From NCBI GenBank assembly GCA_964016885.1, contig OZ024743.1, positions 177,010,001 to 177,074,000 of the forward strand: 64,000 nt of DNA, given 5' to 3'. Both the position numbers and the translations under genes were made by a program. Under the pieces are notes generated by a model. That model made no database searches. It saw nothing but the letters and a program-made list of their open reading frames with translations, and was not told where the DNA came from. This stretch comes from Eledone cirrhosa. Lineage: Eukaryota. Positions 21,955-57,120 of this stretch are shown here, one piece after another (position 1 is the first letter of the stretch; every line of letters begins with the position of its first letter).

Positions 21955-23912
21955 ATCCAGTTACAGGTTGTGAATACTTCGTATTATGGATAGTTTTAGC
22001 GTACGGTGTTGTTTGACTCAACAAGGGGTTTACGTAAGTGGCGAGTTTATGAGTTCTCTTGTATTCCTATGTAAGTTTATCTTGGAGTAATAATATTGAA
22101 AGTGTGAAGAATAACATGGTCAACAGTACAAAAAAGAGTTTTATTTACAGTCTGACAATTGTTTCACTGATTAAGTTGTCTAAAAATTGCTGAACACTTG
22201 AAGCAGAGCCACTCAATTTTAAATATGTTGTTAGCTTAACCAGATCATTGGAGAAAGCTGTTATATGTTCAGTATTTTTACAAATTCAAATTACAGCATC
22301 CTTAATAATATTAATAATAAAGATAGAGAGAGAAAAAAAAGAAGAGAGATAGAGAGAAGAAAGAAAAAAGAGAAAGATATAGAGAAAAAAGACAGAGAGA
22401 AAAGAGGATAGAAAGAGAAGAGAAAAGGATAAAGAAGAAATAAAAGGTAAATAAAAATAAAAATAAAGGGAAAAATAATGATATCAACAATAAATGAATA
22501 AATGCTAATAAATAAGTGCTAATAAATAAGTTACATCGAGGGTGATACAAAATAATACAAAATATGAAAATAAATAAATAAAAAATGTTTATATGTGCGA
22601 AGAAAAGTAAACAGTAAGATTATTGAGAGTAGTTGTGGTGTTGGTGGTTAAAACAGAGATACGAAGGTATAAACATGAAAATGTTAAATATATTTATGTG
22701 TGTATTGGTTATTTAATAAATTAATTATATAATTAATTAATTATTTGATTAATTAATTGTAAGTTATATTAGAAGTGAAAATAATACGATAAGATAAAAT
22801 GTAAGAGATGAAATAAATTTAGGGAGAGAAATAGAAAGATAGAAAGTGAAAGAGAGATATATAAAATATAAAATATAAAATATAAAATATAAAATATAAA
22901 AGGTTATGATGTTGGTTCATTGACAGATGATGACAATTATAAAAATAATTATGATAATAGGATATTATAATAGATTTAAGTGGTACAATTTGAGTTATGG
23001 AATAGATGGGATGAATTAAGTTGGTCTAAAGTTATCAAATTTGGTTGCCGTTTTATGCCTACAGAAAATAGTTCTTTCAATGTTGCTGTTAAGTAGCATT
23101 TTGTTGTATTTTAAAATTTGGAATAGCTCCATATTACAAAGACCACAGTAGGACATGCCAATTCTATAGACTATTGCCGTTGATAACTTCATCCAGCTGA
23201 TTCTGTATTCCTGGTTTGCATCTTTGAGCTGCCAGATTTTATTGGCGAGCGTTGTTGTATTCATAAGCTTCTTGTTATTTATAGAGTGTCTGTGGACATA
23301 CCACCTTTTCTAGAACTCCCCCGCTGTGGAACCTATGTAGTGCCATGCTAAGTTGCCTGAATTTATAGTACATAGGTACACTCTAGGCATCTATTTTGTA
23401 ATGGGCATTTATCAGGTAGATGACAGTAACATTTTGATGCCTTCCTATATGCCGGTTCCTCGATATGGTTTTGTATGTTGTTATGTATGGGCTGAGAATT
23501 GGGTTTGTTGATGTATTGTGGTGATGTGCTCTGACGTGTGTTTGGGTGTGATGATGTTACGTGTTTGTGTTTTATATTTGATGTTATGGTACTTGTTTGC
23601 GGGCTACTTGTATTAGAAATTCTCTTATAGTTAATTTTATATATGTGCGATTCTATGTTGTTGTTCTTTTTTCTCTCTCTATCTTTATTATTAATATTAT
23701 TAATGATGCAGTAATTTGAATTCGTAAAAATATTGAACATATAACAGCTTTCTCCGATATTCTGGTTAAGCTAACAACGTATTTAAAATTGAGTGGCCCT
23801 GCTTCAAGTGTTCAGCAACTTTTAGACAACTTAATCAGTGAAACAATTGTCAGGCTGTAAATAAAACCCTTTTTTTGTACTGTTGACCATGTTATTCTTC
23901 ACTCTTTCAATA
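21955..23912 (-). mobile_element. Decayed 5'-truncated Penelope-like element (Zn-linker + GIY-YIG, AT-rich 3' UTR, pLTR) with an inverted pLTR copy
   Basis: Minus strand gives CYCHLPDKCPLQNRC...YIGSTAG...TTLANKIWQLKD...YCGLCNMELFQI...LLNS...CRHK. 22094-22335 is the reverse complement of ~23665-23912. Each copy has a decayed hammerhead (22147-22261 minus; 23744-23858 plus). Confidence 0.85.
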
Positions 23913-23938
23913 TATATTTATAAAAATTTGGAATAGCT

Positions 23939-23970
<32 letters not shown>

Positions 23971-23979
<9 letters not shown>

Positions 23980-24813
23980 TAAACAAATAATGAATAAACA
24001 ATGAGACAGTTCCTTATATTAAACAAAAAAAGTTCATTATTTAACGATCGTTTCTAGGATATATATGTGTTAGAATTGGCATGCATATTCAACAGATCTA
24101 TGTACAAAATTATACAAAATTATACAAACTATCAAGATTAAATATACATACCAACACATATATACGCCGTCTTCAGAAATAATGAAGTATATTTATTGAT
24201 AATAACAACAATTCAAAATTTCAGGTCCGTTTGGGAACAAAATTGACCAATGAAAATACAAAAGGTTTAATGCAGTTCGGTCTGTGTATATACATGTAAA
24301 ACCCTTACACATATTTTACAAAAATGTATGCATAACTTGTATACGCATACTAAAAGGATGGATGCAAATACAAAATTTCAAGGTTAATGTCTCTGTAAGT
24401 TTATAATGCACAGATAAGATGCGTATAGACACACAAATATGAAATAAGTGTATAGATATATTTTCATACTCACACATATCCGTACAATCACACATACACG
24501 CGCGTATATGCATAAATATACACATAACCACGAACATACAAACACACACACACCCCCACTCACATATATATATGTGGATATAAAATCATAAGCACATGGA
24601 TATTAATTCACTCACATAAACACTGGCACACACATTTAGATCAAGATACAGAAATTAGGTGGGAGGGGGGGGAGAGGTCAGTATTCAACGGTCTGGGCAG
24701 ACTGCTTAATATAGATGTATCTATAAACTAAGAAAATAAAAAATAATAAATAATAAATAAACATTAAAGAGGAAAGAATAGAAAAAGAAAAGAGAAAAAA
24801 GAAATATATCAAG

Positions 24814-24887
<74 letters not shown>

Positions 24888-25033
24888 CACACACACACAC
24901 ACATACATATATATACACATATACAAACACATACATACATATACACACATCCACACTAAGAACATACATACACACACATATATAAACATATACATATACA
25001 CACATACATACATATACACACATACATATAAAT

Positions 25034-25084
<51 letters not shown>

Positions 25085-25603
25085 CATACACACATACATA
25101 CACATATAATCACACATACTATATAGACACACATATATATACACACATACACGCACATATACATACACTTACATACTTATATACATACAGATATACACAT
25201 ACATAGCTATATATACACACAAATACATACAGACATACATACATACATACAGACAAATACTTACGCATCTATATATCGGTATATACATACAAACACCACT
25301 ACACTATCACACAACTCAGACATACAAAGAAAAAGGTATATACCTATACACACATACATATACAAATAGAAAAACATATAGATATATATATAAATATATA
25401 CACATATATATATACATATATATATACATATATATATATATATACATATACACATACACACACATACACATACATACACATACATACATGTACACACACA
25501 TAGAAATATATACGCATACACACATACACACATACATATAAAGTCATACACACACATACACCTACACGAACATACACATACACATATATAAAGATATATA
25601 TAC

Positions 25604-25636
<33 letters not shown>

Positions 25637-25659
25637 TATATATAAAAAATAAATAATAA

Positions 25660-25710
<51 letters not shown>

Positions 25711-26044
25711 CATATACATACACACATACATAGACATATATGTACATACATACACATACATAGATACATACACACACATACATACATATATATATACACA
25801 CATAGACATATACATACATACACACACAACTTACATACACACATATATATTCATACATAGAATTAGATATATAATCATACATACATATGCACTTACATAT
25901 ACTCATATATACAAATACATACGCATCCATATATGCGTATATACATAGAAACACCACTACAACCTCACCCAACTCAGACATACAAATAAAAATAAAAAGG
26001 CATATGCATATACATATATACACGCATTAATAGAGATATATATA

Positions 26045-26078
<34 letters not shown>

Positions 26079-26311
26079 TACACACATACACTTATATATA
26101 TATATACATACCCACACACACATACCACCATAAATACACATACAAACACCCACATATACATATATATACACACATATATATATATATACACACACATAAA
26201 AAACAGACATGCACATATATATTTTTTTACACATATATATACACATATTATATACATATACACTCCCTCACATATACACACATACACATAAGTTATATTA
26301 TAATAATAAAT

Positions 26312-26378
<67 letters not shown>

Positions 26379-26408
26379 GAATATAGACATATATACACAC
26401 ATAGACAC

Positions 26409-26446
<38 letters not shown>

Positions 26447-26650
26447 ATATACACAGACACATATACACACTCACATATATATGTGTGTGCACACACACAT
26501 ATATACACATACACACATATACACATAAACACATATATGTGTATACATGCACACACACACATATATCCACATAGATACGAAGATAGACATATAAATAGAG
26601 AGACATACATATATATACACACACACATATACATACATACATACACACAC

Positions 26651-26711
<61 letters not shown>

Positions 26712-28972
26712 CACACATACACATACACACACATATACACATGCATATATACACATATACACATACATACACACACACATATATACTCACACAATCTTAC
26801 ATTCATATTTGTATGCGCATATATGTATTTTTATATTCAGATATAAATACCCAAACATATATACACCTACCTACATATATATTCATACATACACGCTTAC
26901 AAACACAGATGATAATAGTATGGGGGAAAGGGGGGGGTTGGAGAAGGGGATTATAGTAAATATATGTTTCAAGAAGCATAGAATATTATCCGTATCTGGA
27001 TCCAATGTATGTTTTTACATAGTTTCAGTGTTAGGAAATACAATAAACAAGAAATAAGGCAAAATTTATGCATTTCAAAATAAATAAGTATACCATTAAT
27101 TATATGTTAACTAAACTAAAGATAGTTAACATATTGATTTCTAAGGTGTAAATTAGTTAGGTTTATAATATTTGAAGCAGAATTTTGAAGTTAAATAGTA
27201 GTAGAGTATTAATTATAGTATAACTAAATTAAAGTTAATAACGTTATGGTATCAATATTAGGAAATGAATTTAGTAATAGGGAAAAAACAAATAAAGTAT
27301 TACATCGGTAGTAGAATATAAATTATAGGTTAACTAAATTAAAAATTATATATTTATTTCTATAGTATATGTTAATTAGGTATATAATAAATAAAACAGA
27401 TATTGTATTTTATCAATAGCAGAATATAATTATATGCAAATAGAAATCAAAATTAATACATATACATATACATATACATACACATACATATATACATATA
27501 TATACACATATATATATACATATATACACATATACACACACACACACATACACATACACATATACATATACATATTTTTTTCAAAAAATTGCATAGAATA
27601 TATTAACTAGGTATATATCCAAAACACATCCCATTCTATGATTACATGACATTCTGCAATTCGTCTGTATAAGGATACTAATTTTAAGCAAATTAAATTA
27701 AATTTTTAGGTTGATTAAAATTAAAACCAAATTATAAATATATTTCTAAAATGTATATTAATTAGGTCTATAATACTAAAAATTATTTCTCTGTCATTGG
27801 ATACACGATATTATTTTGTTATATTTTATCTGTAAAAGAATTATAATAAAAGGTTTAAATAAATTAAAATTAATCTATAAATTAAATTACTAAGTATATA
27901 TTAGTAATATTTAAAGGTTTTTCACAATTTATGATTACATAATATTTTATATTCTCATCTGTAATAAAATTTTAATTAAATTAAATTTATAGGTTAACCA
28001 ACATTTAAATTAAATTAATTTCTAAAATAATCTTATTAATTAGGTTTATAATATTTAAATGTTTTTTTTAGTTTATGATTACACGATATAATTAATTCCT
28101 GTCGTTTATTTAATAAGATATCCTTAGATTTCATTATTTCAAATAGTTCTTGGGAACATAATCTACATTCATTTCTATTATTTTGATAAGGGGTGGCTCT
28201 TTTGAGCACACTCCAGGTCAAATCATATTCTATATTCTTATTTTTATAACTATTGATTTTTTCTGCTAGAGATGTTGTATTAGCCAGTGCGGCATTTTTA
28301 AAACTATGCTTGTGGGTATTAAACCTTGTCTTAAAATTGTTAGAGGTAGCTCCTATATATGAGCAAATAGAATCTTTAGTTTTAACATTACATTTATAGA
28401 CTATGTTGTTAACAAGACAATTCCCTTTTAATGGGCAGTTTGCTTTGTTTCTACAGTTACATCCTTTCGTTAATTCTGTATTTGAGGAGATATTATGGTT
28501 AATTTGATGTACTGGTGGTATACTTATGGTTTTCTTACATTTATATGCATTATAGGCACTTATATTTTGTTTTATGTTATTTGTTGTAGAGTATGAGAAT
28601 TTAACTGTAGACCTATTTAAGATTTGATGGTATTTGTGGTTTGGCGGGAAGTTTTTCTCTAGGATATAAAAAATTTTTTTAGCAATATTATCCTTAATTT
28701 GTAAATTAAATGGAGCATTATACCAAGTAACCCGTCTATTACGGTTTCTATGTTGTTTATTATTTTTATTATTTTTATAGGTTGTATCGTGATTTTTACT
28801 AGGAGGATTAATGTTAATGATCTCACCACAACCATTTTTAGTTATATTTGTAGATTTAGGTGTTTTATCTTTTTTATTAGGAGTTTTATTATTAATATTT
28901 ATTAGAGTTGTATGATGAGTAGTTTTTTGAGAGTTACTATACTTTATATTAGAAGATTTGGTATTTTGGGGT
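23971..28972 (-). mobile_element. Left arm of the Penelope-like palindrome: 5'-truncated Neptune-type PLE (open linker/GIY-YIG frame 28972-28036, ~4-kb 3' region, hammerhead)
   Basis: Reverse complement of 29351-34368 at about 99% identity outside microsatellite-length differences. The GIY-YIG frame ends ...ECRLCSQELFEI...LLNKRQELIISCNHK. Confidence 0.93.
24033..24186 (-). ncRNA. Type I hammerhead ribozyme (mirror copy of 34153-34306)
   Basis: Reverse complement reads TTCATTATTT-CTGAAGA...GAAA-C-GATC-G-TT-AAATAATGAA. Confidence 0.85.
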
Positions 28973-31613
28973 TTATAATCTTAATATTACTTTTGAAAAA
29001 ACAAGTAAAGTAGTAAATTTCCTAGATATAACTTTAGATTTAGCTACGGGTATCTACCAACCTTACCATAAACCTAACCAAAACTTACATTACATACACT
29101 CACAATCTAATCACCCTAAATCTATCCTTAAAAACCTTGCATATAATATATCACTTAGAATTTCTAACCTTTCTTCTAACCAAGATGTATTTGATAAAAA
29201 TGCGACCTTCTATAACGAAGCTCTAGATAGAAGTGGCCACAAAAATAGATTAGAATATATACCTTCTACTAAAAATACTGAAAGCATACAACCTAATATT
29301 ACCAACAAACACCAAATGAAAAGTACACACCTAAATGCCACCCACACTATACCCCAAAATACCAAATCTTCTAATATAAAGTATAGTAACTCTCAAAAAA
29401 CTACTCATCATACAACTCTAATAAATATTAATAATAAAACTCCTAATAAAAAGGATAAAACACCTAAATCTACAAATATAACTAAAAATGGTTGTGGTGA
29501 GATCATTAACATTAATCCTCCTAGTAAAAATCACGATACAACCTATAAAAATAATAAAAATAATAAACAACATAGAAACCGTAATAGACGGGTTACTTGG
29601 TATAATGCTCCATTTAATTTACAAATTAAGGATAATATTGCTAAAAAAATTTTTTATATCCTAGAGAAAAACTTCCCGCCAAACCACAAATACCATCAAA
29701 TCTTAAATAGGTCTACAGTTAAATTCTCATACTCTACAACAAATAACATAAAACAAAATATAAGTGCCTATAATGCATATAAATGTAAGAAAACCATAAG
29801 TATACCACCAGTACATCAAATTAACCATAATATCTCCTCAAATACAGAATTAACGAAAGGATGTAACTGTAGAAACAAAGCAAACTGCCCATTAAAAGGG
29901 AATTGTCTTGTTAACAACATAGTCTATAAATGTAATGTTAAAACTAAAGATTCTATTTGCTCATATATAGGAGCTACCTCTAACAATTTTAAGACAAGGT
30001 TTAATACCCACAAGCATAGTTTTTAAAATGCCGCACTGGTTAATACAACATCTCTAGCAGAAAAAATCAATAGTTATAAAAATAAGAATATAGAATATGA
30101 TTTGACCTGGAGTGTGCTCAAAAGAGCCACCCCTTATCAAAATAATAGAAATGAATGTAGATTATGTTCCCAAGAACTATTTGAAATAATGAAATCTAAG
30201 GATATCTTATTAAATAAACGACAGGAATTAATTATATCGTGTAATCATAAACTAAAAAAAAACATTTAAATATTATAAACTTAATTAATAAGATTATTTT
30301 AGAAATTAATTTAATTTAAATGTTGGTTAACCTATAAATTTAATTTAATTAAAATTTTATTACAGATGAGAATATAAAATATTATGTATTCATAAATTGT
30401 GAAAAACCTTTAAATATTACTAATATATACTTAGTAATTTAATTTATAGATTAATTTTAATTTATTTAAACCTTTTATTATAATTCTTTTACAGATAAAA
30501 TATAACAAAATAATATCGTGTATCCAATGACAGAGAAATAATTTTTAGTATTATAGACCTAATTAATATACATTTTAGAAATATATTTATAATTTGGTTT
30601 TAATTTTAATCAACCTAAAAATTTAATTTAATTTGCTTAAAATTAGTATCCTTATACAGACGAATTGCAGAATGTCATGTAATCATAGAATGGGATGTGT
30701 TTTGGATATATACCTAGTTAATATATTCTATGCAATTTTTTGAAAAAAATATGTATATGTATATGTGTATGTGTATGTGTGTGTGTGTGTATATGTGTAT
30801 ATATGTATATATATATGTGTATATATATGTATATATGTATGTGTATGTATATGTATATGTATATGTATTAATTTTGATTTCTATTTGCATATAATTATAT
30901 TCTGCTATTGATAAAATACAATATCTGTTTTATTTATTATATACCTAATTAACATATACTATAGAAATAAATATATAATTTTTAATTTAGTTAACCTATA
31001 ATTTATATTCTACTACCGATGTAATACTTTATTTGTTTTTTCCCTATTACTAAATTCATTTCCTAATATTGATACCATAACGTTATTAACTTTAATTTAG
31101 TTATACTATAATTAATACTCTACTACTATTTAACTTCAAAATTCTGCTTCAAATATTATAAACCTAACTAATTTACACCTTAGAAATCAATATGTTAACT
31201 ATCTTTAGTTTAGTTAACATATAATTAATGGTATACTTATTTATTTTGAAATGCATAAATTTTGCCTTATTTCTTGTTTATTGTATTTCCTAACACTGAA
31301 ACTATGTAAAAACATACATTGGATCCAGATACGGATAATATTCTATGCTTCTTGAAACATATATTTACTATAATCCCCTTCTCCACCCCCCCCCCTTTCC
31401 CCCATACTATTATCATCTGTGTTTGTAAGCGTGTATGTATGAATATATATGTAGGTAGGTGTATATATGTTTGGGTATTTATATCTGAATATAAAAATAC
31501 ATATATGCGCATACAAATATGAATGTAAGATTGTGTGAGTATATATGTGTGTGTGTATGTATGTGTATATGTGTATATATGCATGTGTATATGTGTGTGT
31601 ATGTGTATGTGTG

Positions 31614-31698
<85 letters not shown>

Positions 31699-31902
31699 GT
31701 GTGTGTATGTATGTATGTATATGTGTGTGTGTATATATATGTATGTCTCTCTATTTATATGTCTATCTTCGTATCTATGTGGATATATGTGTGTGTGTGC
31801 ATGTATACACATATATGTGTTTATGTGTATATGTGTGTATGTGTATATATGTGTGTGTGCACACACATATATATGTGAGTGTGTATATGTGTCTGTGTAT
31901 AT

Positions 31903-31937
<35 letters not shown>

Positions 31938-31968
31938 GGTGTCTATGTGTGTATATATGTCTATATTC

Positions 31969-32045
<77 letters not shown>

Positions 32046-32267
32046 ATTTATTATTATAATATAACTTATGTGTATGTGTGTATATGTGAGGGAGTGTATA
32101 TGTATATAATATGTGTATATATATGTGTAAAAAAATATATATGTGCATGTCTGTTTTTTATGTGTGTGTATATATATATATATGTGTGTATATATATGTA
32201 TATGTGGGTGTTTGTATGTGTATTTATGGTGGTATGTGTGTGTGGGTATGTATATATATATATAAGT

Positions 32268-32311
<44 letters not shown>

Positions 32312-32644
32312 ATATATATCTCTATTAATGCGTGTATATATGTATATGCATATGCCTTTTTATTTTTATTTGTATGTCTGAGTTGGGTGAGGTTGTAGTG
32401 GTGTTTCTATGTATATACGCATATATGGATGCGTATGTATTTGTATATATGAGTATATGTAAGTGCATATGTATGTATGATTATATATCTAATTCTATGT
32501 ATGAATATATATGTGTGTATGTAAGTTGTGTGTGTATGTATGTATATGTCTATGTGTGTATATATATATGTATGTATGTGTGTGTATGTATCTATGTATG
32601 TGTATGTATGTACATATATGTCTATGTATGTGTGTATGTATATG

Positions 32645-32693
<49 letters not shown>

Positions 32694-32944
32694 TTATTAT
32701 TTATTTTTTATATATATGTGTGTGTGTGTATGTGTGTGTGTGTGTGTGTGTATATATATCTTTATATATGTGTATGTGTATGTTCGTGTAGGTGTATGTG
32801 TGTGTATGACTTTATATGTATGTGTGTATGTGTGTATGCGTATATATTTCTATGTGTGTGTACATGTATGTATGTGTATGTATGTGTATGTGTGTGTATG
32901 TGTATATGTATATATATATATATATGTATATATATATGTATATA

Positions 32945-32975
<31 letters not shown>

Positions 32976-33270
32976 CTATATGTTTTTCTATTTGTATATG
33001 TATGTGTGTATAGGTATATACCTTTTTCTTTGTATGTCTGAGTTGTGTGATAGTGTAGTGGTGTTTGTATGTATATACCGATATATAGATGCGTAAGTAT
33101 TTGTCTGTATGTATGTATGTATGTCTGTATGTATTTGTGTGTATATATAGCTATGTATGTGTATATCTGTATGTATATAAGTATGTAAGTGTATGTATAT
33201 GTGCGTGTATGTGTGTATATATATGTGTCTATATAGTATGTGTGATTATATGTGTATGTATGTGTGTATG

Positions 33271-33323
<53 letters not shown>

Positions 33324-33469
33324 ATTTATATGTATGTGTGTATATGTATGTATGTGTGTATATGTATATGTTTATATATGTGTGTGTATGTATGTTCTTA
33401 GTGTGGATGTGTGTATATGTATGTATGTGTTTGTATATGTGTATATATATGTATGTGTGTGTGTGTGTG

Positions 33470-33523
<54 letters not shown>

Positions 33524-34500
33524 CTTGATATATTTCTTTTTTCTCTTTTCTTTTTCTATTCTTTCCTCTTTAATGTTTATTTATTATTTATTATTTTTTA
33601 TTTTCTTAGTTTATAGATACATCTATATTAAGCAGTCTGCCCAGACCGTTGAATACTGACCTCTCCCCCCCCCCTCCCACCTAATTTCTGTATCTTGATC
33701 TAAATGTGTGTGCCAGTGTTTATGTGAGTGAATTAATATCCATGTGCTTATGATTTTATATCCACATATATATATGTGAGTGGGGGTGTGTGTGTGTTTG
33801 TATGTTCGTGGTTATGTGTATATTTATGCATATACGCGCGTGTATGTGTGATTGTACGGATATGTGTGAGTATGAAAATATATCTATACACTTATTTCAT
33901 ATTTGTGTGTCTATACGCATCTTATCTGTGCATTATAAACTTACAGAGACATTAACCTTGAAATTTTGTATTTGCATCCATCCTTTTAGTATGCGTATAC
34001 AAGTTATGCATACATTTTTGTAAAATATGTGTAAGGGTTTTACATGTATATACACACACCGAACTGCATTAAACCTTTTGTATTTTCATTGGTCAATTTT
34101 GTTCCCAAACGGACCTGAAATTTTGAATTGTTGTTATTATCAATAAATATACTTCATTATTTCTGAAGACGGCGTATATATGTGTTGGTATGTATATTTA
34201 ATCTTGATAGTTTGTATAATTTTGTATAATTTTGTACATAGATCTGTTGAATATGCATGCCAATTCTAACACATATATATCCTAGAAACGATCGTTAAAT
34301 AATGAACTTTTTTTGTTTAATATAAGGAACTGTCTCATTGTTTATTCATTATTTGTTTAATATTTTATCTTGACTCTGTATACCGTTTATCTTTCACCGA
34401 AAGTGATTTTTCATTACATCTCTTCTTTCCATGATATCCGGAATACATTGAGTTCTTCATACGGATTGGACACTACCGTAAACTCTTGGTAGATTTATCT
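28973..34500 (+). mobile_element. Right arm plus spacer: 5'-truncated Neptune-type PLE (RT thumb, Zn-linker, GIY-YIG; nonsense codon at 30024-30026), long 3' region and pLTR
   Basis: Spacer translates VVNFLDITLDLATGIYQPYHKPNQNLHYIHSQSNHPKSILKNL, continuing into RVTWYNAPF, CNCRNKANCPLKGNC and IVYKC...SYIGATSNNFKTRFNTHK. Confidence 0.93.
34153..34306 (+). ncRNA. Type I hammerhead ribozyme with a 115-nt extended stem II; predicted cleavage after GUU at 34296
   Basis: Perfect 10-bp stem I TTCATTATTT/AAATAATGAA; core CTGAAGA; stem II TATATATGTGTTGG/CTAACACATATATA; GAAA; stem III AC-GATC-GT. Confidence 0.88.
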
Positions 34501-35085
34501 ACATATATATATATATATATATATATATACTACCTCTCCTCCTCCTTCAAGTTTGACCTGTGTGTAATTCTTTTCTCGCGCGGTCTTGACCAAGCTGGTA
34601 TGGAATTTTTTTCTCTCTCTTTCGTCTGCGACTTCACAAAACTTACGTTTACCGAATTCGTAGACCAGACCCCTTTATCTTCTTCTTCTTCTTCTTCTTC
34701 TTCTTCTTCTTCCTCCTCTTCTCTCCTTTCTATCTCTCCCCCCCCCCCCATCAAACTTGGGTGAAATTCTTTCCTTGCTCACATTTCAACCAGGTTTGAT
34801 GGTCTTTTGTCTCTTGTTCACGATTTCACCGAGTTTATATTCATAGAGATCTGGGACTTGTCTATTTCTTCTCACTTTCCGTTGCTTAAACTTTTTTGTT
34901 GTTACCCTGGCGTCCCCTTTGTTTACGTGTCCCAACGACTTTTTTTAGCCGTTGTTCGCACCAACCTGAGGCATATGGCCCTTAAAGCGATGAAATGCCT
35001 AGGACGGTTGGAGGGTCACTGATGAAGGACTCACTTTTTCATATGTATCCCATTTGCAACGCCGCAGCTCCATTATTATCATATT

Positions 35086-37095: not shown

Positions 37096-37098
37096 TGT

Positions 37099-37134
<36 letters not shown>

Positions 37135-37526
37135 TCATCATCATCAACGTTTAACGTCCGTGTTCCACGCTTGCATGGGTTTGGACGGGGGTAGTCCCAC
37201 TTGAGGCAAGAGTGATTGTCTTGCTCGCATAGGACTGTCTGGCAGGTTTTCTACAGTTGGATGCCCTTCCTAACACCAACCACATATACAGTGTGGGTCT
37301 GGGAGGTTTTTACCGTGTTGCCTACACGGCCACATTACAGCGTGGACTGTGTGTTTTTTTGTCGTGACACCTACACGATCTCATTTGTTTCGGCCTGGAT
37401 GGCGCGGCACCAACATAACTTTACATAGAACGGGGTGGTGTGGATGGGGTGGGGGTGGTGGTGGTGGTGGGACGGGGTGTATTTTGTTAGAGATGCCTAC
37501 TGGCTGGAGTAGGTTTTACTATATAT

Positions 37527-40500: not shown

Positions 40501-40565
40501 ATTTCTACAACCTCGTTAGCGCGACCCTTTAGGGTGCCTACATTTATGGTACCAACTCTGAAGTT
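37527..40565 (-). pseudogene. RTE ORF2 (AP endonuclease, reverse transcriptase with embedded PHD finger) interrupted by one in-frame TGA at 39525-39527
   Basis: FRVGTINVGTL...CCIQETRW...AYAPQ...GDLNGHVG...VDYIL...SQHRLI (APE); AWKV*RDGGSREDYQVARRE; NYRGIKL...FVDLEKAFDRV...GVHQGSVLSPLLF...LLYADD...FRYLG (RT). Track ORFs 39525..40502 and 37527..39494 share a frame, 30 nt apart. Confidence 0.95.
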
Positions 40566-40684
40566 TTGGATTGCGTTTGGGGGTTGGGGGCGGTGGGCGA
40601 TGGGGTTATGTTAGCCGTCCGCGGTCGAAACAATGAGTGCTCGCATTCTCGTCCAAGAGGTGAATTTGTCTTTATCTTTGGCAT
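40544..40684 (-). CDS. Putative short RTE ORF1 (46 aa) overlapping the ORF2 start
   Basis: ATG at 40684 gives MPKIKTNSPLGRECEHSLFRPRTANITPSPTAPNPQTQSKTSELVP*. ORF2 has no ATG before its first APE motif. Short overlapping ORF1s are known in RTE elements. Confidence 0.45.
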   Translation of the reverse strand: MPKIKTNSPLGRECEHSLFRPRTANITPSPTAPNPQTQSKTSELVP

Positions 40685-44130: not shown

Positions 44131-44398
44131 CTTGATTTCTACAGCTGGATGCCCTTCCTAACATCAACCTCATTTACAGTGAGTGCTGGGTGCTTTTTTG
44201 CCGTGGCACCTCCACGACCACTTTGCAGTGGAATGATAGGGACCCCAGTCCCTATCATCTCATTTCTACAGCTGAGTAAACTGGAGCAATGTGAAATAAA
44301 GTGTCTTGCTCAAGGAAACAACACATCACCCGGTCTGAGAATTGAAATCACAACCTTTCGATTGCAAGGCCAATGCTCTAACCACTAAACCATGTGCC
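44131..44398 (-). mobile_element. tRNA-derived SINE (family A), 3'-incomplete
   Basis: Reverse-complement match to 52214-52558. Confidence 0.85.
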
Positions 44399-44411
44399 TC
44401 CATGTGCCTCT

Positions 44412-46860
44412 ATCTTAACTGTTATTGTTTTGTCGGTGATTTTGCATTTAACTAGGTGTTTCTTAAATGAGGAAGCGATAGTATTGAGGTGTTCTTTTAT
44501 TCTTATGTGGAGTGGTCTGGTGGTGCCACCTACGTTGCTGCATTTGTCGCACTCTAGTCTGTATACGACGTAAGCCTGGTGGCATAGGTCTGTGTCGTTG
44601 ATGGGGCAGTTGGCTAGCCTGCAGCGGTTGTCATGTCTGGTGAAGTGTCTTTTGGTTAGCTGGCCACGTAGAGAAGGACCTGAGTGGGCCAGTTGGATAT
44701 CTAGTCCCTCTCGTTTGATAGCTCTGCGGATGGCTGTTGTTGTTTCGTCACTGAAGTGTGGGAGCCTCGGATGTGGTGTCCTCTGTTCTTTCTGGTACGG
44801 TTTGTGGTGGATGTCGTGTATCCATTCAGTTTGAGTACTTCCAGGAAATGTGTGGTGTGTGTGTCTCGGTCTCTAGCGTCGGTGCATTTGTTCCGGATAC
44901 ATGTTAGTTCATTCCTTATGTATCCAAACTTAGTGCCGGCTGGGAAGGCCGATCTGAAATGTACGAACAGGTCCCTGCTGGCGGCTTTTTTATAGAAGCA
45001 GGTGTGGATGTTGCCTTCCTCTGTTACCCTGAGTTGGAAGTCCAGTAGGGATAGGGATCCGCGGTCATCGGGGTGTTCCATGCTGAACTTTATACTGGCG
45101 TCCATGCTGGAGAATGTTGTGTATATTTTATCCGCCTCCTCACTGGATGATGTAAGGATAAGTATGTCATCTACATATCGGGTGAAGAAGGTATGGGAAT
45201 GGCAGGTGTTGAGGGCTTCTCATTCTAGCTGGTTCATATAGGTGATGGCCAGCAGGCCCGATAGGCTGGAAACCATGGGTAATCCTGTTGTCTGTCTGTA
45301 TGTGTGGTGGTGGAAGGTGAAGTACGTGTTGTCCACTGTGAAGGACAAAAGCTGGTGTATGTCCGTCGGATGGATGCCGTAGCAGTGGATGTCCTCTGCA
45401 ACCAAGCAGTCCGTCAATAAATCGACAGCTGGATGAGCGGGGACTGTAGTGTAGAGGGAGACAACGTGGAGGCTAAAGGCGTATCTATTTAGTTTAAGTT
45501 GTTCTGGCTGCAGTTGGTGCAGTCTACGTATGACTTCGTCGGAGCTACTGACATGCCCGGGAAAGGTGGAGAGTAGAGGCTTGAGGACCTGGGAGAGGAG
45601 CCAGGAAATTTTGTATAGGGGTCCTTCTATGCTAGAGACGATGGGTCTTATTTGTGTCTTAGTACTATTCTTGTGGGTCTTGATGAGGTGGTAGAAAGTG
45701 GGCAGTCTGCTATTTCTAGTGGTGTAGTTGAGCTTAACTTTATTTGGGAGTTGTCTTCTCCTACAGATGTCGAACCAGATGGAGTTGGTCTGTTTTTCGG
45801 TCTGGGCTGCAGTCATGTCCGGGATCTCTGTATATAGTACATTGTCGCTTAGGTGTTCAAAGGCTAGGTTGTTGTATGTGGCTTGAGAGATAACGCAAAA
45901 CTCTTTACCTTTGTCGGATGGTAAGTATATAAGTTCCCTATTCCGTAGGTTCTTCAGGGTGAGTTGTGTCCTAGAGAGGTTTGGGGCTATCTTCTTCTGT
46001 TTCCGTAAGATGTTAAATACGGAATGTTTTAGCCTCGAGAGTTTTTCTTCAAGCTCGCGGTTGGCAGGCGGTGGACAGAGTGGGCGATCCAGTTGGTATA
46101 TCGGGAATCTAGGTTTGTTAGATTCCGTGGTGTTGTTGCCGAGAGTCGATATCCATTTTAGTTGGTAGGCAGCCCGACAGAAATTCGAGCCATAATTTGT
46201 CGTCCAGTCTCTGTTTCAATATGAACTTGGGACCCAGGCTGAGGAGGTCTAATTCCTCTCGGGAGAGGGATCCTGTCAAGTCTGTGACAAGGTGTTTTGC
46301 GTCAGGTGTGTTGTTGGTCGGGGCGCCGCTAGGTTCGGTGTTGGTACCGTCTTGTTCGCATCTGTTGGTGCTTAGAGTTGGGATGTTGTTAAGACGGTTA
46401 GCTGTGTTGAGTTTGAGAAATTTTTGCGTTAGGGGTATTTTCTCGTAGTCTCGGCGATGGTGGTATGTCCTGTCTATAGCGGCGGAGATAACTCTGGACA
46501 GAGGTTCTGGGGTTTCAGCGAGTTGTGGTACAAGGCTGGAAATAGTCCGTATGTGTTGTTGTAGCGTGCAGTGTAGGTGTTGTATGAGTTTTCTTAGGCA
46601 GAATTTTTGTATGTAGCTAAGTGATCGTTTGAGGCCTGGTGATTTGAAGCATGTTGGTAGGTGCAAGATTTTGATGAATATATAAATATTTAATATAGAA
46701 AAGGCTTCTACAGGACTAGAACTGTTTCATTCGGGAGAAATCGTCAGGAATATTTATACTCTGCTTTGTATTGAGTACTTTACTTACTGTGGTTACCCCC
46801 GATTGAACCCGGGATAAACTTATATATCTACCTGGCGAATTCTTTCAAATCCGGATTTGG
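44412..46860 (-). mobile_element. Decayed Penelope-like element (N-terminus, RT, GIY-YIG) with an upstream hammerhead
   Basis: LSREELDLLSLGPKF; PTFYHLIKTHK...IRPIVSS...SLHVVSLYTTVP...YRQTTGLPM...RYVDDILI; VVYRLEC...GGTTRPLHIRIKEH. Frameshifts and stops present. Confidence 0.9.
46706..46750 (-). ncRNA. Hammerhead ribozyme 5' of the PLE ORF
   Basis: TTC-CTGACGA-tTTC-tccc-GAAt-GAAA-CAG...CTG-TA-GAA on the minus strand. Confidence 0.65.
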
Positions 46861-48280: not shown

Positions 48281-48332
<52 letters not shown>

Positions 48333-48882: not shown

Positions 48883-48931
<49 letters not shown>

Positions 48932-49114
48932 TAGGATTAGCCTAGATGCAGTAATGGTTAATTACTACACTGGGTAGAGTTGACGTACGGTGAGAGGTTG
49001 CTCAATGAGTTATGGAAGAATTGTTGAAGGAACGTAGTTCCTGATCCTTCTGTATTCCGGAGTGTAGATAAAGAATGAATAATAACAGGTAATAAAAAGG
49101 TAATTTATTCTGTG

Positions 49115-49226
49115 TGCTTACAAATGTTTCCACGGTGGTTATACAGCCTAGTTATGCTATGTGCAAATTTATAACTATTTGCAAAACTCAATTATCAAAT
49201 GCTGTGACCACTGTATCATCAGAGCA
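49115..49226 (-). ncRNA. Type I hammerhead in a probable pLTR remnant (~48930-49326)
   Basis: TGCT-CTGATGA-tACAGTGGT...ACCACCGTg-GAAA-C-ATTT-G-TA-AGCA. Confidence 0.75.
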
Positions 49227-49320
49227 GAATGGTTAAAATGTAAAATGGAAATACCCTTAAGTGAGGTTATTGGGGAAGATAGAGTAGAAAAGGAATGATG
49301 TCTACCTGTTATTATTCATT

Positions 49321-49365
<45 letters not shown>

Positions 49366-50214
49366 CATACATATATATATATATACATATAAATTTTGAG
49401 TATATGTCGGTTGTTTATCGACACCTCAGTATGCAGATTGGAGCACTCAACGAAGTATCCAGGTTGGTTTGTTTACTCCAGAGTAATGTAAAATAATTAA
49501 GTCAAATATGTAAAATTTGGCTTCGTTTATTATAAATTATAGATATACTGCTATATATATTTCGGTGACAGCCATCATTGGCTGTGACCTCTTCAGGCAG
49601 TCAGAATTGGTGTTGAAAAGACAGGTACACATGTTATTGAAGTGTGTTTTACTCCATCAATACATCGATATGTCCAGCTCATGGTTGTGTTGTTATTCCT
49701 CTGAGGAACTAGAATCATATGGTTCCAGTGTGTGTGTAGTAGTGATATATGTATGTATTTAAGTGTGTATGTGTGTGTGTGTGTGGTAGTGATATATGTA
49801 TGTATTTAAGCGTGTGTCTTGTGTGGTAGTTGAAACGGTTGGAGCTCAACTGTCGGTGCGTTCTGGTCTGCCTGGTTTCCCACCATACCCTCTCTGTTAT
49901 ATGTACATATATATATGTGTATGTATATATATGATAAATCATGTCTTTAGAATCATCAGGTAAAATATATACTATTTCTTCTTCTAATTAGCATAATTAA
50001 CCATATAAAAAATCAATTAGAACAAGCTATAAGAATAAATGCTCTTATGGAGAAATCTCCGACAAATAACCGAACGTAGCCTCTTCGCGGTGGCCTCAAT
50101 TGAGTATTTATCCAACATTTCGACAGCATGTAGAAACTGACTAAATATACCATCAACCATACACAATTAGGTGTAAAATTAAACTTAGAAGAAATGCGCA
50201 CATACCGTAATTAT

Positions 50215-50292
50215 ATCTCTACCATGGTTTCTTCCTTATTTTTAGACATCCAAATAATAGGAATGTCCTGAGTTAGGATTCATCAGGAGACA
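50215..50292 (-). ncRNA. Type I hammerhead (mirror copy of 50768-50844)
   Basis: Reverse complement reads GTCTC-CTGATGA-aTCCT...AGGAa-GAAA-C-CATG-G-TA-GAGAT. Confidence 0.78.
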
Positions 50293-50767
50293 AACTCAAA
50301 ATCACACATCTAGTTTTTCAATCCGATCCCGCCAAAAATAGATTCAAAAATGGCTAAGAATCGCTATGTGGCTGTGGTCAAGCCAGAAAGAATGTGATTG
50401 GTTGCTTACGGCGGGTAGGCTTGCTGCTAGAAAGCGCAGCCAAATATCGCCAAATTTAATCTCAACCTATCGGTAGATTATTAAATATAAAGGTTAACAT
50501 ATACATAGAGCTTAAAAGTGACCAGTTGCAACATGTATATATCTATAACTTTATGTATATGTTAACCTTTATATTTAATAATCTCCCGATAGGTTGAAAT
50601 TAAATTTGGCGATATTTGGCTGCGCTTTCTAGCAGCAAGCCTACCCGCCGTAAGCAACCAATCACATTCTTTCTGGCTTGACCACAGCCACATAGCGATT
50701 CTTAGCCATTTTTGAATCTATTTTTGGCGGGATCGGATTGAAAAACTAGATGTCTGATTTTGAGTTT

Positions 50768-50844
50768 GTCTCCTGATGAATCCCAACTCAGGACATTCTT
50801 ATTATTTGGATGTCTAAAAATAAGGAAGAAACCATGGTAGAGAT
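50768..50844 (+). ncRNA. Type I hammerhead; predicted cleavage after GUA at 50839
   Basis: GTCTC/GAGAT stem I, CTGATGA at 50773, GACATTC/GGATGTC stem II extension, GAAA at 50828, palindromic CCATGG stem III. Confidence 0.75.
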
Positions 50845-51248
50845 ATAATTACGGTATGTGCGCATTTCTTCTAAGTTTAATTTTACACCTAATTGTGTAT
50901 GGTTGATGGTATATTTAATCAGTTTCTGCATGCTGTCGAAATGTTGGATAAATACTCAATTGAGGCCGCCGCGAAGAGGCTACGTTTGGTTATTTGTCGG
51001 AGATTTCTCCATAAGAGCATTTATTCTTATAGCTTGTTCTAATTGATTTTTTATATGGTTAATTATGCTAATTAGAAGAAATAGTATATATTTTATCTGA
51101 TGATTCTAAAGACATGATTTATGATATATTGCTCTGATTTTTTAATTTATTAATTCTTCATAGAGCTTAAAAGTGACCAGTTGCAACATGTATATATCTA
51201 TAACTTTATGTATATGTTAACCTTTATATATATATATATATATATATA

Positions 51249-51690: not shown

Positions 51691-51744
51691 ATATATATAG
51701 ATATATATATATATATACATATATACATATACACATTCAAACAC

Positions 51745-52112
51745 ATCATCATCATCATCCTTTTACGTCTGCTTTTCCCTGCTTGCATGGGTTGGACGGG
51801 TCCTATTCAGCACAGCATCCCTCCACTTGTCACGGTCCTTTTGTCATCTCCTCGGTGAGATTCAGCGATCTGAGGTCAGCCCTCACCACCTCCGCCCATG
51901 TTTCACGCAGTCTAACTCTACTGCGTCTTCCTTCTACTGGGATTTTTCGGCACTTCTTTACCCAGCGGTCATCCTCCATGCGCATCACATGTCCATACCA
52001 TCTCAGCCTTCTCTCCTGCACACCACAACTTATCTCTCTTATACCCAGTTTTTTTCTCAACTCTTCTATGCTTGGTCATTAATGCACATTGGCATTGCAC
52101 ATCCAATGGAGC
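51745..52112 (-). mobile_element. 3' fragment of a third RTE subfamily (its tail also occurs at ~47662-47753)
   Basis: KKLGIREISCGVQERRLRWYGHVMRMEDDRWVKKC and a (GAT)n tail. Confidence 0.85.
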
Positions 52113-52213
52113 ACACATATACATATATATATACACACACATATAGATACACATATGTTGATATACGTGTGTATATATATATATATATACATGTGTGTGT
52201 GTAATTATATATA

Positions 52214-52558
52214 GGCACATGGCTTAGTGGTTAGAGCATTGGCCTTGCAATTGAAAGGTTGTGAGTTCAATTCTCAGACCGGGTGATGTGTTGTTTCCTT
52301 GAGCAAGACACTTTATTTCACATTGCTCCAGTTTACTCAGCTGTAGAAATGAGATGATAGGGACTGGGGTCCCTATCATTCCACTATAAAGTGGTCGTGG
52401 AGGTGCCACGGCAAAAAAAGCACCCAGCACTCACTGTAAATGAGGTTGGTGTTAGGAAGGGCATCCAGCTGTAGAAATCAAGCCAGAATCAGTTCCCGTC
52501 CCACCCTTGCAAGCAGGGAAAAAGCGGACGTAAAATGAAATGATGAAATCATGATGAT
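52214..52558 (+). mobile_element. Full-length tRNA-derived SINE (family A) with an RTE-like 3' tail
   Basis: A box TGGCTTAGTGG, B box GAGTTCAATTC, central TCCTTGAGCAAGACACTT, and tail GTTGGTGTTAGGAAGGGCATCCAGCTGTAGAAA...GGACGTAAAA(TGA)n shared with the RTE 3' UTRs. Confidence 0.9.
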
Positions 52559-52572
52559 ATATATATATATAT

Positions 52573-54460
52573 ATATATTTAGAAACACACAGATACACGC
52601 GGACACACACATATATACATGAGTGCATCCGCACCCAACTGTGAGTTAAGGGTGCCAACTTCACCGATGTTGCTCAATGAATGACTGGGACAGACCAATT
52701 CAGTTTGAACCAGACTGAACCAGTATCAGAGTTAAAAATACATTATGAAGAGAGAAGAAACATTTAGATATAATTAGTAATAAAATGTATCATACCTAAA
52801 CTGTTCCTAAATTCCTCGACTACGTAGTTTCGTGGCATAAACAAAAACAATATATCAAAGATATAGAGTCCTTGCGAGGTCTGCCAACTTATCAAGAGGA
52901 TACCTCATTTTACTAGTCTCAAGAACGCGTCTACACGGCGTGAGAAAGAATCCCAAAAGGCGGAGGGGGAGATAGTCACGCGATATAACGGTCGAGAAAC
53001 AGAGCTAAGCCTCTTATAACCACGAAGAAAATACCACGGAGGCGGAGGGGGTATTCATATCGAGGCCGCAGAAGAGGTAGTGAAGAAGGCGAGAAGTATG
53101 AGTAATGGAAGCTTTCCAGTTGTCCCCACACTTCAAAGATTGCTCGACCAGAGGGAGTTATTAATATATTTAGAAACACAGATACACGCGGACACACACA
53201 TATATACATGAGTGCATCCGCACCCAACTGTGAGTTAAGGGTGCCAACTTCACCGATGTTGCTCAATGAATGACTGGGACAGACCAATTCAGTTTGAACC
53301 AGACTGAACCAGTATCAGAGTTAAAAATACATTATGAAGAGAGAAGAAACATTTAGATATAATTAGTAATAAAATGTATCATACCTAAACTGTTCCTAAA
53401 TTCCTCGACTACGTAGTTTCGTGGCATAAACAAAAACAATATATCAAAGATATAGAGTCCTTGCGAGGTCTGCCAACTTATCAAGAGGATACCTCATTTT
53501 ACTAGTCTCAAGAACGCGTCTACACGGCGTGAGAAAGAATCCCAAAAGGCGGAGGGGGAGATAGTCACGCGATATAACGGTCGAGAAACAGAGCTAAGCC
53601 TCTTATAACCACGAAGAAAATACCACGGAGGCGGAGGGGGTATTCATATCGAGGCCGCAGAAGAGGTAGTGAAGAAGGCGAGAAGTATGAGTAATGGAAG
53701 CTTTCCAGTTGTCCCCACACTTCAAAGATTGCTCGACCAGAGGGAGTTATTAATATATTTAGAAACACACAGATACACGCGGACACACACATATATACAT
53801 GAGTGCATCCGCACCCAACTGTGAGTTAAGGGTGCCAACTTCACCGATGTTGCTCAATGAATGACTGGGACAGACCAATTCAGTTTGAACCAGACTGAAC
53901 CAGTATCAGAGTTAAAAATACATTATGAAGAGAGAAGAAACATTTAGATATAATTAGTAATAAAATGTATCATACCTAAACTGTTCCTAAATTCCTCGAC
54001 TACGTAGTTTCGTGGCATAAACAAAAACAATATATCAAAGATATAGAGTCCTTGCGAGGTCTGCCAACTTATCAAGAGGATACCTCATTTTACTAGTCTC
54101 AAGAACGCGTCTACACGGCGTGAGAAAGAATCCCAAAAGGCGGAGGGGGAGATAGTCACGCGATATAACGGTCGAGAAACAGAGCTAAGCCTCTTATAAC
54201 CACGAAGAAAATACCACGGAGGCGGAGGGGGTATTCATATCGAGACCGCAGAAGAGGTAGTGAAGAAGGCGAGAAGTATGAGTAATGGAAGCTTTCCAGT
54301 TGTCCCCACACTTCAAAGATTGCTCGACCAGAGGGAGTTATTAATATATTTAGAAACACACAGATACACGCGGACACACACATATATACATGAGTGCATC
54401 CGCACCCAACTGTGAGTTAAGGGTGCCAACTTCACCGATGTTGCTCAATGAATGACTGGG
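52573..54460 (-). repeat. Retrozyme-like 591-bp tandem array, left block (~3.2 units; hammerheads at 52813-52900, 53402-53489, 53993-54080)
   Basis: Period 589/591. Reverse complement of the right block. Confidence 0.95.
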
Positions 54461-57120
54461 TATTTTCTTCGTGGTTATAAGAGGCTTAGCTCTGTTTCTC
54501 GACCGTTATATCGCGTGACTATCTCCCCCTCCGCCTTTTGGGATTCTTTCTCACGCCGTGTAGACGCGTTCTTGAGACTAGTAAAATGAGGTATCCTCTT
54601 GATAAGTTGGCAGACCTCGCAAGGACTCTATATCTTTGATATATTGTTTTTGTTTATGCCACGAAACTACGTAGTCGAGGAATTTAGGAACAGTTTAGGT
54701 ATGATACATTTTATTACTAATTATATCTAAATGTTTCTTCTCTCTTCATAATGTATTTTTAACTCTGATACTGGTTCAGTCTGGTTCAAACTGAATTGGT
54801 CTGTCCCAGTCATTCATTGAGCAACATCGGTGAAGTTGGCACCCTTAACTCACAGTTGGGTGCGGATGCACTCATATATATATGTGTGTGTCCGCGTGTA
54901 TCTGTGTGTTTCTAAATATATTAATAACTCCCTCTGGTCGAGCAATCTTTGAAGTGTGGGGACAACTGGAAAGCTTCCATTACTCATACTTCTCGCCTTC
55001 TTCACTACCTCTTCTGCGGCCTCGATATGAATACCCCTTCCGCCTCCGTGGTATTTTCTTCGTGGTTATAAGAGGCTTAGCTCTGTTTCTCGACCGTTAT
55101 ATCGCGTGACTATCTCCCCCTCCGCCTTTTGGGATTCTTTCTCACGCCGTGTAGACGCGTTCTTGAGACTAGTAAAATGAGGTATCCTCTTGATAAGTTG
55201 GCAGACCTCGCAAGGACTCTATATCTTTGATATATTGTTTTTGTTTATGCCACGAAACTACGTAGTCGAGGAATTTAGGAACAGTTTAGGTATGATACAT
55301 TTTATTACTAATTATATCTAAATGTTTCTTCTCTCTTCATAATGTATTTTTAACTCTGATACTGGTTCAGTCTGGTTCAAACTGAATTGGTCTGTCCCAG
55401 TCATTCATTGAGCAACATCGGTGAAGTTGGCACCCTTAACTCACAGTTGGGTGCGGATGCACTCATGTATATATGTGTGTGTCCGCGTGTATCTGTGTGT
55501 TTCTAAATATATTAATAACTCCCTCTGGTCGAGCAATCTTTGAAGTGTGGGGACAACTGGAAAGCTTCCATTACTCATACTTCTCGCCTTCTTCACTACC
55601 TCTTCTGCGGCCTCGATATGAATACCCCCTCCGCCTCCGTGGTATTTTCTTCGTGGTTATAAGAGGCTTAGCTCTGTTTCTCGACCGTTATATCGCGTGA
55701 CTATCTCCCCCTCCGCCTTTTGGGATTCTTTCTCACGCCGTGTAGACGCGTTCTTGAGACTAGTAAAATGAGGTATCCTCTTGATAAGTTGGCAGACCTC
55801 GCAAGGACTCTATATCTTTGATATATTGTTTTTGTTTATGCCACGAAACTACGTAGTCGAGGAATTTAGGAACAGTTTAGGTATGATACATTTTATTACT
55901 AATTATATCTAAATGTTTCTTCTCTCTTCATAATGTATTTTTAACTCTGATACTGGTTCAGTCTGGTTCAAACTGAATTGGTCTGTCCCAGTCATTCATT
56001 GAGCAACATCGGTGAAGTTGGCACCCTTAACTCACAGTTGGGTGCGGATGCACTCATGTATATATGTGTGTGTCCGCGTGTATCTGTGTGTTTCTAAATA
56101 TATTAATAACTCCCTCTGGTCGAGCAATCTTTGAAGTGTGGGGACAACTGGAAAGCTTCCATTACTCATACTTCTCGCCTTCTTCACTACCTCTTCTGCG
56201 GCCTCGATATGAATACCCCCTCCGCCTCCGTGGTATTTTCTTCGTGGTTATAAGAGGCTTAGCTCTGTTTCTCGACCGTTATATCGCGTGACTATCTCCC
56301 CCTCCGCCTTTTGGGATTCTTTCTCACGCCGTGTAGACGCGTTCTTGAGACTAGTAAAATGAGGTATCCTCTTGATAAGTTGGCAGACCTCGCAAGGACT
56401 CTATATCTTTGATATATTGTTTTTGTTTATGCCACGAAACTACGTAGTCGAGGAATTTAGGAACAGTTTAGGTATGATACATTTTATTACTAATTATATC
56501 TAAATGTTTCTTCTCTCTTCATAATGTATTTTTAACTCTGATACTGGTTCAGTCTGGTTCAAACTGAATTGGTCTGTCCCAGTCATTCATTGAGCAACAT
56601 CGGTGAAGTTGGCACCCTTAACTCACAGTTGGGTGCGGATGCACTCATGTATATATGTGTGTGTCCGCGTGTATCTGTGTGTTTCTAAATATATTAATAA
56701 CTCCCTCTGGTCGAGCAATCTTTGAAGTATGGGGACAACTGGAAAGCTTCCATTACTCATACTTCTCGCCTTCTTCACTACCTCTTCTGCGGCCTCGATA
56801 TGAATACCCCCTCCGCCTCCGTGGTATTTTCTTCGTGGTTATAAGAGGCTTAGCTCTGTTTCTCGACCGTTATATCGCGTGACTATCTCCCCCTCCGCCT
56901 TTTGGGATTCTTTCTCACGCCGTGTAGACGCGTTCTTGAGACTAGTAAAATGAGGTATCCTCTTGATAAGTTGGCAGACCTCGCAAGGACTCTATATCTT
57001 TGATATATTGTTTTTGTTTATGCCACGAAACTACGTAGTCGAGGAATTTAGGAACAGTTTAGGTATGATACATTTTATTACTAATTATATCTAAATGTCT
57101 CTTCTCTCTTCATAATGTAT
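54459..57120 (+). repeat. Retrozyme-like 591-bp tandem array, right block (~4.5 units; hammerheads at 54594, 55185, 55776, 56367, 56958)
   Basis: Exact 591-bp period with only a few substitutions between units. Confidence 0.95.
54594..54681 (+). ncRNA. Type I hammerhead ribozyme with a U3-A8 variant core (one of 8 identical copies); predicted cleavage after GUC at 54676
   Basis: TCCTC-TTGATAA-G-t-TGGCA...TGCCA-C-GAAA-CTACGTAG-TC-GAGGA. All three stems close and the C3-G8 pair is replaced by U3-A8. Confidence 0.88.

Follow-up and report, generated by a model that had tools for sequence, protein, structure and literature searches.

Two fixed 3′ ends and head-to-head arms common to coding Penelope-like elements and non-coding hammerhead arrays in the genome of Eledone cirrhosa

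Tandem and inverted, 5′-truncated copies with a tail on one side only have been described for Penelope-like elements (PLEs) (PMC8557442), and in the Penelope elements of Adineta vaga head-to-head is the commonest arrangement, the tail stands on one of the inverted pseudo-long terminal repeats (pLTRs) and pLTR-flanked cargo was moved in trans (PMC3846280), in agreement with an earlier note on the present DNA that took inverted pLTRs as a known, frequent PLE trait. PAc, a Poseidon PLE of Anolis, was seen in vitro to nick both DNA strands and to extend each of them; it is a predicted dimer, and its reverse transcriptase (RT) starts internally (PMC11167929). The non-LTR (long terminal repeat) retrozymes of Metazoa consist of tandem units that code for no protein and carry a single type I hammerhead apiece; PLEs were proposed as their mobiliser on the grounds of co-occurrence and pLTR phylogeny (PMC7229834; bioRxiv 10.64898/2026.07.22.740005). 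Publications already exist on head-to-head PLEs, on the "tail" with its two starts and on the link between PLEs and retrozymes. Here we analyse a 64,000-nt stretch of the Eledone cirrhosa genome (GCA_964016885.1, contig OZ024743.1, positions 177,010,001 to 177,074,000, forward strand), referred to as the window, in which two coding PLEs (A and B) and two families of non-coding hammerhead repeats (C, 655 bp, and D, 591 bp) stand side by side as inverted pairs.

Masked self-comparison of the window confirmed a head-to-head pair at each of A, B, C and D, as the earlier note had claimed. Polarity follows from the sense strand of the open reading frame (ORF) for A and B and, for every one of the four, from the type I hammerhead motif: the 5′ ends are joined and the 3′ ends point outward. 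The junctions previously proposed for B (28972/28973, blunt and without microhomology), C (CATA microhomology) and D (GG) were found again; for A the junction area also agreed (23663/23664, between arms about 93% alike), but the outer end of the long arm, placed at 21955, lies 30 nt further out, at 21925. The right arm of B extends 135 nt beyond the palindrome end at 34367, reaching (TA)n at 34503. Each family has two fixed 3′ ends, here termed S and L, with an S–L distance of 168 nt in A, 137 nt in B, 100 nt in C and 165 nt in D. What lies between the two sites is the PLE "tail", whose reported length of 30–40 bp (PMC8557442) is exceeded here. The former description of outer ends at TA-like tracts was therefore too loose, as the ends are two fixed sites per family and longer TA runs inside the D unit are not used as 3′ ends. 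The insertion traits of PLEs, i.e., inverted 5′-truncated copy, one-sided tail and (TA)n target, are all present in A–D.

Judged by their motifs, A and B are Hydra-clade PLEs. The tandem unit of B measures 6672 bp and, in a genomic copy outside the window, holds an intact single ORF of 813 aa with an RT and, at its C terminus, a GIY-YIG endonuclease (EN), with RDD and SYIG motifs aligned with those of homologues. Its assignment is a motif match to the published clade definition, as RWR (RWK-type), DKT, CNCRNKANC (CxCx5C), CRLC (CxxC) and CNH (CxH) are present, together with the hammerhead and the (TA)n insertion (PMC8557442); no significant match of the ORF was found in Pfam or PDB. Hydra-clade elements are usually shorter than 3 kb (PMC8557442), whereas the B unit reaches 6.7 kb because of a 4-kb microsatellite-rich 3′ untranslated region (UTR). 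Element A is the decayed 3′ part of an element related to B and retains in broken frames CYCHLPDKC (CxCx5C linker), CGLC (CxxC) and CRH (CxH), which it has in common with the clade (PMC8557442); as its family is known here from 3′ parts, the clade assignment comes from linker and EN. The four elements had been called unrelated, which is correct for A and B at the DNA level, where no kinship was detectable, but not for their proteins, which are 39% identical over the EN. One further B insertion of about 29 kb (L150–L152 and L274) combines 3.9 kb in its L arm with almost four units of 6.7 kb in its S arm. Element E (window 48934–49320, minus strand), a fifth hammerhead element, is the 3′ end of another Hydra-like PLE family, with an inverted short-ended partner at two fetched loci (L284, L306) and many copies running upstream into EN coding sequence. 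A decayed RT and GIY-YIG-like element of another PLE type, its 3′ end cut by a short interspersed nuclear element (SINE), lies at 44378–46726 (minus strand), and a further EN fragment, 40% identical to the EN of B, at 60105–60260 (plus strand).

C and D fit non-LTR retrozymes in their sequence. Their longest ATG frames are 47 and 75 aa, no match with PLE proteins was found, and the arrays reach about nine units with one type I hammerhead motif per unit. D is young and abundant, with 7142 exact matches to a 35-mer; counted genome-wide with exact sequence patterns, its ends are fused to (TA)n at least 2517 times at S and at least 1064 times at L, the L pattern missing variant ends. The score of A with C was 42 against 25 ± 3.5 in a crude shuffle, a weak match, and the A–C and A–E scores were above all 300 crude shuffles. 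C carries a second CTGATGA 25 nt before site S (window 51083–51232), in a stretch aligning weakly with the hammerhead region of A, and this is possibly a vestigial second motif. C is inserted at the upstream end of a further element, F (window 49394–49926, minus strand), with a canonical-looking type I hammerhead at 49547–49601 and a fold z of −2.28. In each of two sequencing runs labelled as other organisms (X5 and X6), a D contig one unit long is present and shows 5 differences (window 55224–55844 and 56105–56681), readable as belonging to relatives or as transfer.

Each of the families A–D has a type I hammerhead motif whose stem III is palindromic, a property known from the hammerheads of PLEs (PMC4209133). 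A regex search retrieved the D motif 8 times and did not match those of A, B and C, which were read by eye in the window and in family majority sequences; an Rfam scan matched no hammerhead family. The core of A is U4C in the family and more decayed in the window copy, and the single-strand folds of C and D, whose cores are variant, are not unusually stable (z of −0.95 and 0.50). The hammerhead is a sign of kinship with PLEs and not the cause of the head-to-head shape, since Naiad PLEs without hammerhead still form inverted copies (PMC8557442) and PAc insertion proceeds without hammerhead cleavage (PMC11167929).

The end sites were followed in genome-wide family samples, the best-hit samples being the best 29–40 of 564–4263 candidates per family. 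Among the 39 best-hit loci of D, 25 head-to-head pairs, 15 solo arms and no tail-to-tail pair were found; 63 of 65 arms end at S or L, and 23 of the 25 pairs combine L with S, the other 2 having an odd end. D was also sampled by position: the first 100 pattern matches fell in 46 clusters with 18 minus/plus switches and a single plus/minus one, from a duplicated locus, and the 33 loci read gave 19 pairs, 18 of them unique (cluster 15, already in the best-hit set, was omitted). All but one of these 18 pairs are L+S, the remaining one having one odd end, which brings D to 40 L+S pairs out of 43, with neither S/S nor L/L. On C1:1-104.7 Mb, where 100 S and 44 L ends were listed, the opposite-strand neighbours within 10 kb are head-to-head S+L in 25/25 cases, a count overlapping the position-ordered sample. 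As the solo arms of D use the two sites about equally (8 at S, 7 at L), chance would yield L+S in about half of the pairs, and this combination is not forced.

The other families behave alike. C gave 16 pairs in 28 loci, none tail-to-tail, with 11 L+S and 5 with an odd or rearranged end. For B, 29 loci comprised 20 L+S, 8 with one end in view and 1 mirrored (20 of 21 two-armed loci thus being L+S). Ten of the 29 A loci have an inverted 5′ partner within 1.5 kb, which ends at S in 6 and is cut or rearranged in the others, again with no tail-to-tail case. Since the A and B queries included the L end, L/L was detectable and S/S hardly; L/L was seen once in B, at the mirrored locus L154. Five B matches on unplaced contigs and the overlapping or duplicated C loci L082, L091–L097 and L162 were omitted, and the counts cover 30 of 40 candidates for the SINE and A, and roughly half of the loci for RTE.

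Fused tail-to-tail junctions and equally inverted non-hammerhead repeats, which the earlier note had named as speaking against its reading, did not appear, the former in any family sample and the latter in two controls. An RTE-type long interspersed nuclear element (LINE) showed fused inversion in 0 of 20 loci, with opposite-strand copies 636–2714 nt off in 4; the SINE showed 1 doubtful case in 29, an adjacent opposite piece of 63 nt, and six other opposite-strand neighbours at least 200 nt off, four tail-to-tail and two head-to-head. These counts are strict, as a looser count took in fragments of TA and the tails of old SINE copies, and the comparison is only suggestive because the SINE matches are full-length by selection and the RTE matches older. 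The RTE copies of the window, which carry a PHD-like finger and whose 3′ end the SINE has as well, lie at 37118–40610, 61440–63097 and 9607–12650. The common integration footprint that had been proposed for the four elements holds genome-wide in the family samples.

Both arms of a locus carry one haplotype. Mismatches in D were 12/10669 (0.11%) within loci versus 1942/264070 (0.74%) between loci in the best-hit sample, and 56/5573 (1.0%) versus 2434/89730 (2.7%) in the position-ordered one; the corresponding values were 47/19021 (0.25%) versus 4417/352053 (1.25%) in B and 184/5909 (3.1%) versus 4498/96803 (4.6%) in C. Among the best-hit D loci, 22 yielded 45 variant calls that are uniform across their locus, as would be expected from a monomer circle or from a source array of homogeneous units. 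L033, also a D locus, has two variants specific to single units that recur in register on either arm, a hint of conversion or of a template with several units. Microhomology of at least 2 nt was present at 13/25 (D best-hit), 7/18 (D position-ordered) and 6/16 (C) junctions, with 0.15–0.18 expected, and short inserts at 4, 6 and 8 junctions, respectively, so that the junctions look like end joining. D 5′ ends seemed over-represented close to position 1 of the unit, which was discounted as an effect of query selection, and a comparison of four sequencing runs, with a signal dominated by repeats, showed no empty allele.

From the geometry, the two end sites, their pairing, the common haplotype and the target, all read directly, we infer an enzyme complex, nicking and double priming, and we consider it likely that the four insertions, two coding PLEs and two hammerhead repeats, were made by a PLE-type RT/EN complex priming one RNA twice. 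The complex, probably a dimer, would bind the RNA downstream of the hammerhead and cut a (TA)n tract by a nick in either strand. Reverse transcription would be primed at S by one of the 3′ OH groups and at L, 100–168 nt further 3′, by the other, aided by the pairing of a few bases with a UAU-type motif. Both enzymes would copy the one RNA toward its 5′ end, halting at random points and, on a tandem or circular template, passing through several units, and the two complementary DNA (cDNA) ends would then be joined by end joining with 0–6 nt of microhomology or a short insert. A single surviving arm would remain as a solo S- or L-ended copy, and C and D would use the PLE machinery in trans. More tentatively, and with rather less than even confidence, PLE integration at large might be an asymmetric twin target-primed reverse transcription, in which one dimer holds one RNA and each half has its own fixed start; on a circular RNA both halves would circle it, writing two multimeric arms at once, and retrozymes as well as several-unit arrays of the full-length 6.7-kb PLE would thus be inserted ready-made. 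Of the mechanisms formerly offered, priming from both nicked strands fits the data and fold-back is excluded at many loci, while the mobilisation of retrozymes by the PLE RT/GIY-YIG protein is suggested by the footprint common with A and B, a partner PLE for C or D not having been found among the elements compared.

The double priming proposed here recalls that of LINE-1, in which twin priming generates a head-to-head 5′ inversion as a single RNA is primed twice. In LINE-1 the internal site at which the second primer anneals varies and sets the limit of the first arm, whereas in A–D neither start site varies and the arms are free to overlap. A likeness also exists with PAc, for which both strands are nicked and extended, the tail is the stretch between two start sites and the target is AT-rich; the difference is that in vitro neither a strand-specific start nor start-site homology was seen, and head-to-head pairs and non-coding RNAs, both treated here, were not analysed in that study (PMC11167929). 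The strict L+S pairing present here is not part of the PLE description in the available portion of PMC8557442. Insertion ends and orientation are not described in the available portions of the retrozyme papers (PMC7229834; bioRxiv 10.64898/2026.07.22.740005), in the latter of which Li, Clavereau and Pollet (2026) suggested that arrays grow locally, whereas in the present genome the arrays are dispersed in their thousands and stop at fixed ends of PLE type. Our literature search found neither the L+S rule nor inverted or head-to-head retrozymes in any paper, most subscription journals and all supplements lying outside its coverage.

The arms might come from two separate RNA-protein particles of one source locus inserting at both ends of one break. 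This would yield independent arm lengths and head-to-head geometry, and one dominant transcript per cell could even yield one haplotype; it is nevertheless unlikely, since it gives no reason for the ends of D always differing, and several D haplotypes circulate, yet the arms nearly always match. The common haplotype would also follow from fold-back, in which a cDNA bends back to serve as its own template, or in which, as was proposed for Adineta vaga (PMC3846280), priming is by an antisense template on itself, the second end being resolved at a fixed distance. A few near-perfect palindrome junctions (B L147 and L154; A L113 and L122), the in-register variants of L033 and the geometry of all four window elements are compatible with it, so the case against it rests on loci outside the window. 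Fold-back needs one arm inside the other and is therefore ruled out where neither contains the other, namely in 10/17 position-sampled D pairs, 8/20 B pairs and the A locus L117; at the D locus L260 the two 95-nt arms have no common sequence. The arm geometry thus contradicts the Adineta vaga explanation at many loci, and fold-back, which we hold to be very improbable, is refuted as the general route and may account for a minority of loci. We give little credence to the movement of C and D by another enzyme (that of RTE, the RT of some other LINE, or host repair acting where (TA)n is fragile) with the PLE likeness arising by convergence, because the failure to find a partner PLE and the existence of young RTE LINE copies, also in TA-rich DNA, are set against the ending of RTE and its SINE at a 3′ repeat tail without fused inversions and against a two-site rule common to C, D and the coding PLEs A and B. 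Assembly artefacts, or later DNA-level inversions with gene conversion, can almost be dismissed as the origin of the palindromes. In their favour, long palindromes are prone to mis-assembly, the flanks of L154 are mirrored and two fetched loci are duplicated with their flanks; against them, the arms of A and C differ by 3–7%, the fixed sites at which the arms stop are not the same, and only particular families show the pattern.

Several points weigh against the double priming of one RNA by a PLE-type complex. Its support is drawn from sequence, from which the action of the enzyme would have to be deduced, and the selection of best hits and of control repeats described above narrows it further. 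The comparison with A, B and E brought up no coding PLE resembling C or D in its DNA, and pairwise DNA scores stayed within the shuffle range for B–C, B–D and D–E and for 8 of 10 pairs overall. Fold-back geometry fits 22/23 best-hit D pairs and 9/9 C pairs tested. Site S follows the predicted cleavage site at 61–80 nt in A, B and D, whereas in C the spacing is 290 nt; folding put S and L in no common structure, and no RNA structure common to the families was found, just as a five-way alignment of the 3′ regions gave no common motif. The strict pairing is left unexplained by PAc, since in vitro its start sites did not differ between strands and showed no target homology (PMC11167929). Finally, the B locus L154 has a mirrored L/L plus a perfect S/S palindrome; this locus with mirrored flanks (L154 and L275) is probably a DNA-level inverted duplication or an assembly error.

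The features of the window are collected in Table 1. Between the S end of A and the (TA)n common to A and B sits a templated piece of the interior of A (23923–23944), and positions 1–9606 are occupied by a 52-bp satellite of about 185 copies with 92–93% matches.

Table 1. Arms, tail and hammerhead motifs of elements A–D, in window positions.
Feature	Positions	Strand	Description
Element A, long arm	21925..23663	−	5′-truncated Hydra-clade PLE (by motifs): decayed EN region, 3′ UTR, hammerhead-like motif; site L end adjoins (TA)n
Element A, short arm	23664..23918	+	Site S end; predicted cleavage after 23851; core decayed
22-nt copy of internal A piece	23923..23944	−	Between the S end of A and the (TA)n common to A and B
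Element B, short arm	23971..28972	−	Unit positions 1659–6537; site S end adjoins (TA)n
Element B, long arm	28973..34503	+	Unit 1281–6674; RT thumb, CxCx5C linker, GIY-YIG-type EN, microsatellite-rich 3′ UTR; site L end
B hammerhead motif	34150..34306	+	CTGAAGA 34163, GAAA 34285, palindromic stem III, predicted cleavage after 34296; read from sequence
B "tail"	34368..34503	+	135–137 nt from S to L; on one arm only
Element C, short arm	49927..50507	−	655-bp non-coding unit; site S end (unit 552)
Element C, long arm	50504..51232	+	1.1 units; site L end (unit 655); CATA overlap at junction
C hammerhead motif	50767..50845	+	CTGATGA 50773, GAAA 50828, predicted cleavage after 50839; read from sequence
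Element D, long arm	52573..54460	−	3.2 units of 591 bp; 3 hammerhead motifs; site L end (unit 463)
Element D, short arm	54459..57120	+	4.5 units; 5 hammerhead motifs (U3-A8 variant); site S end (unit 298); GG overlap

The origin of tandem and inverted PLE insertions and the enzyme moving animal retrozymes are stated as open in the cited papers. To these questions the window adds two coding PLEs as positive controls beside two retrozyme families, placing coding elements and non-coding arrays side by side under one rule and naming the RNA start sites for four families; with these sites and an intact natural Hydra-clade ORF, the question becomes testable in one in vitro assay. In the Eledone cirrhosa genome, the evidence speaks against two earlier proposals, self-priming on an antisense template and the growth of retrozyme arrays in place.

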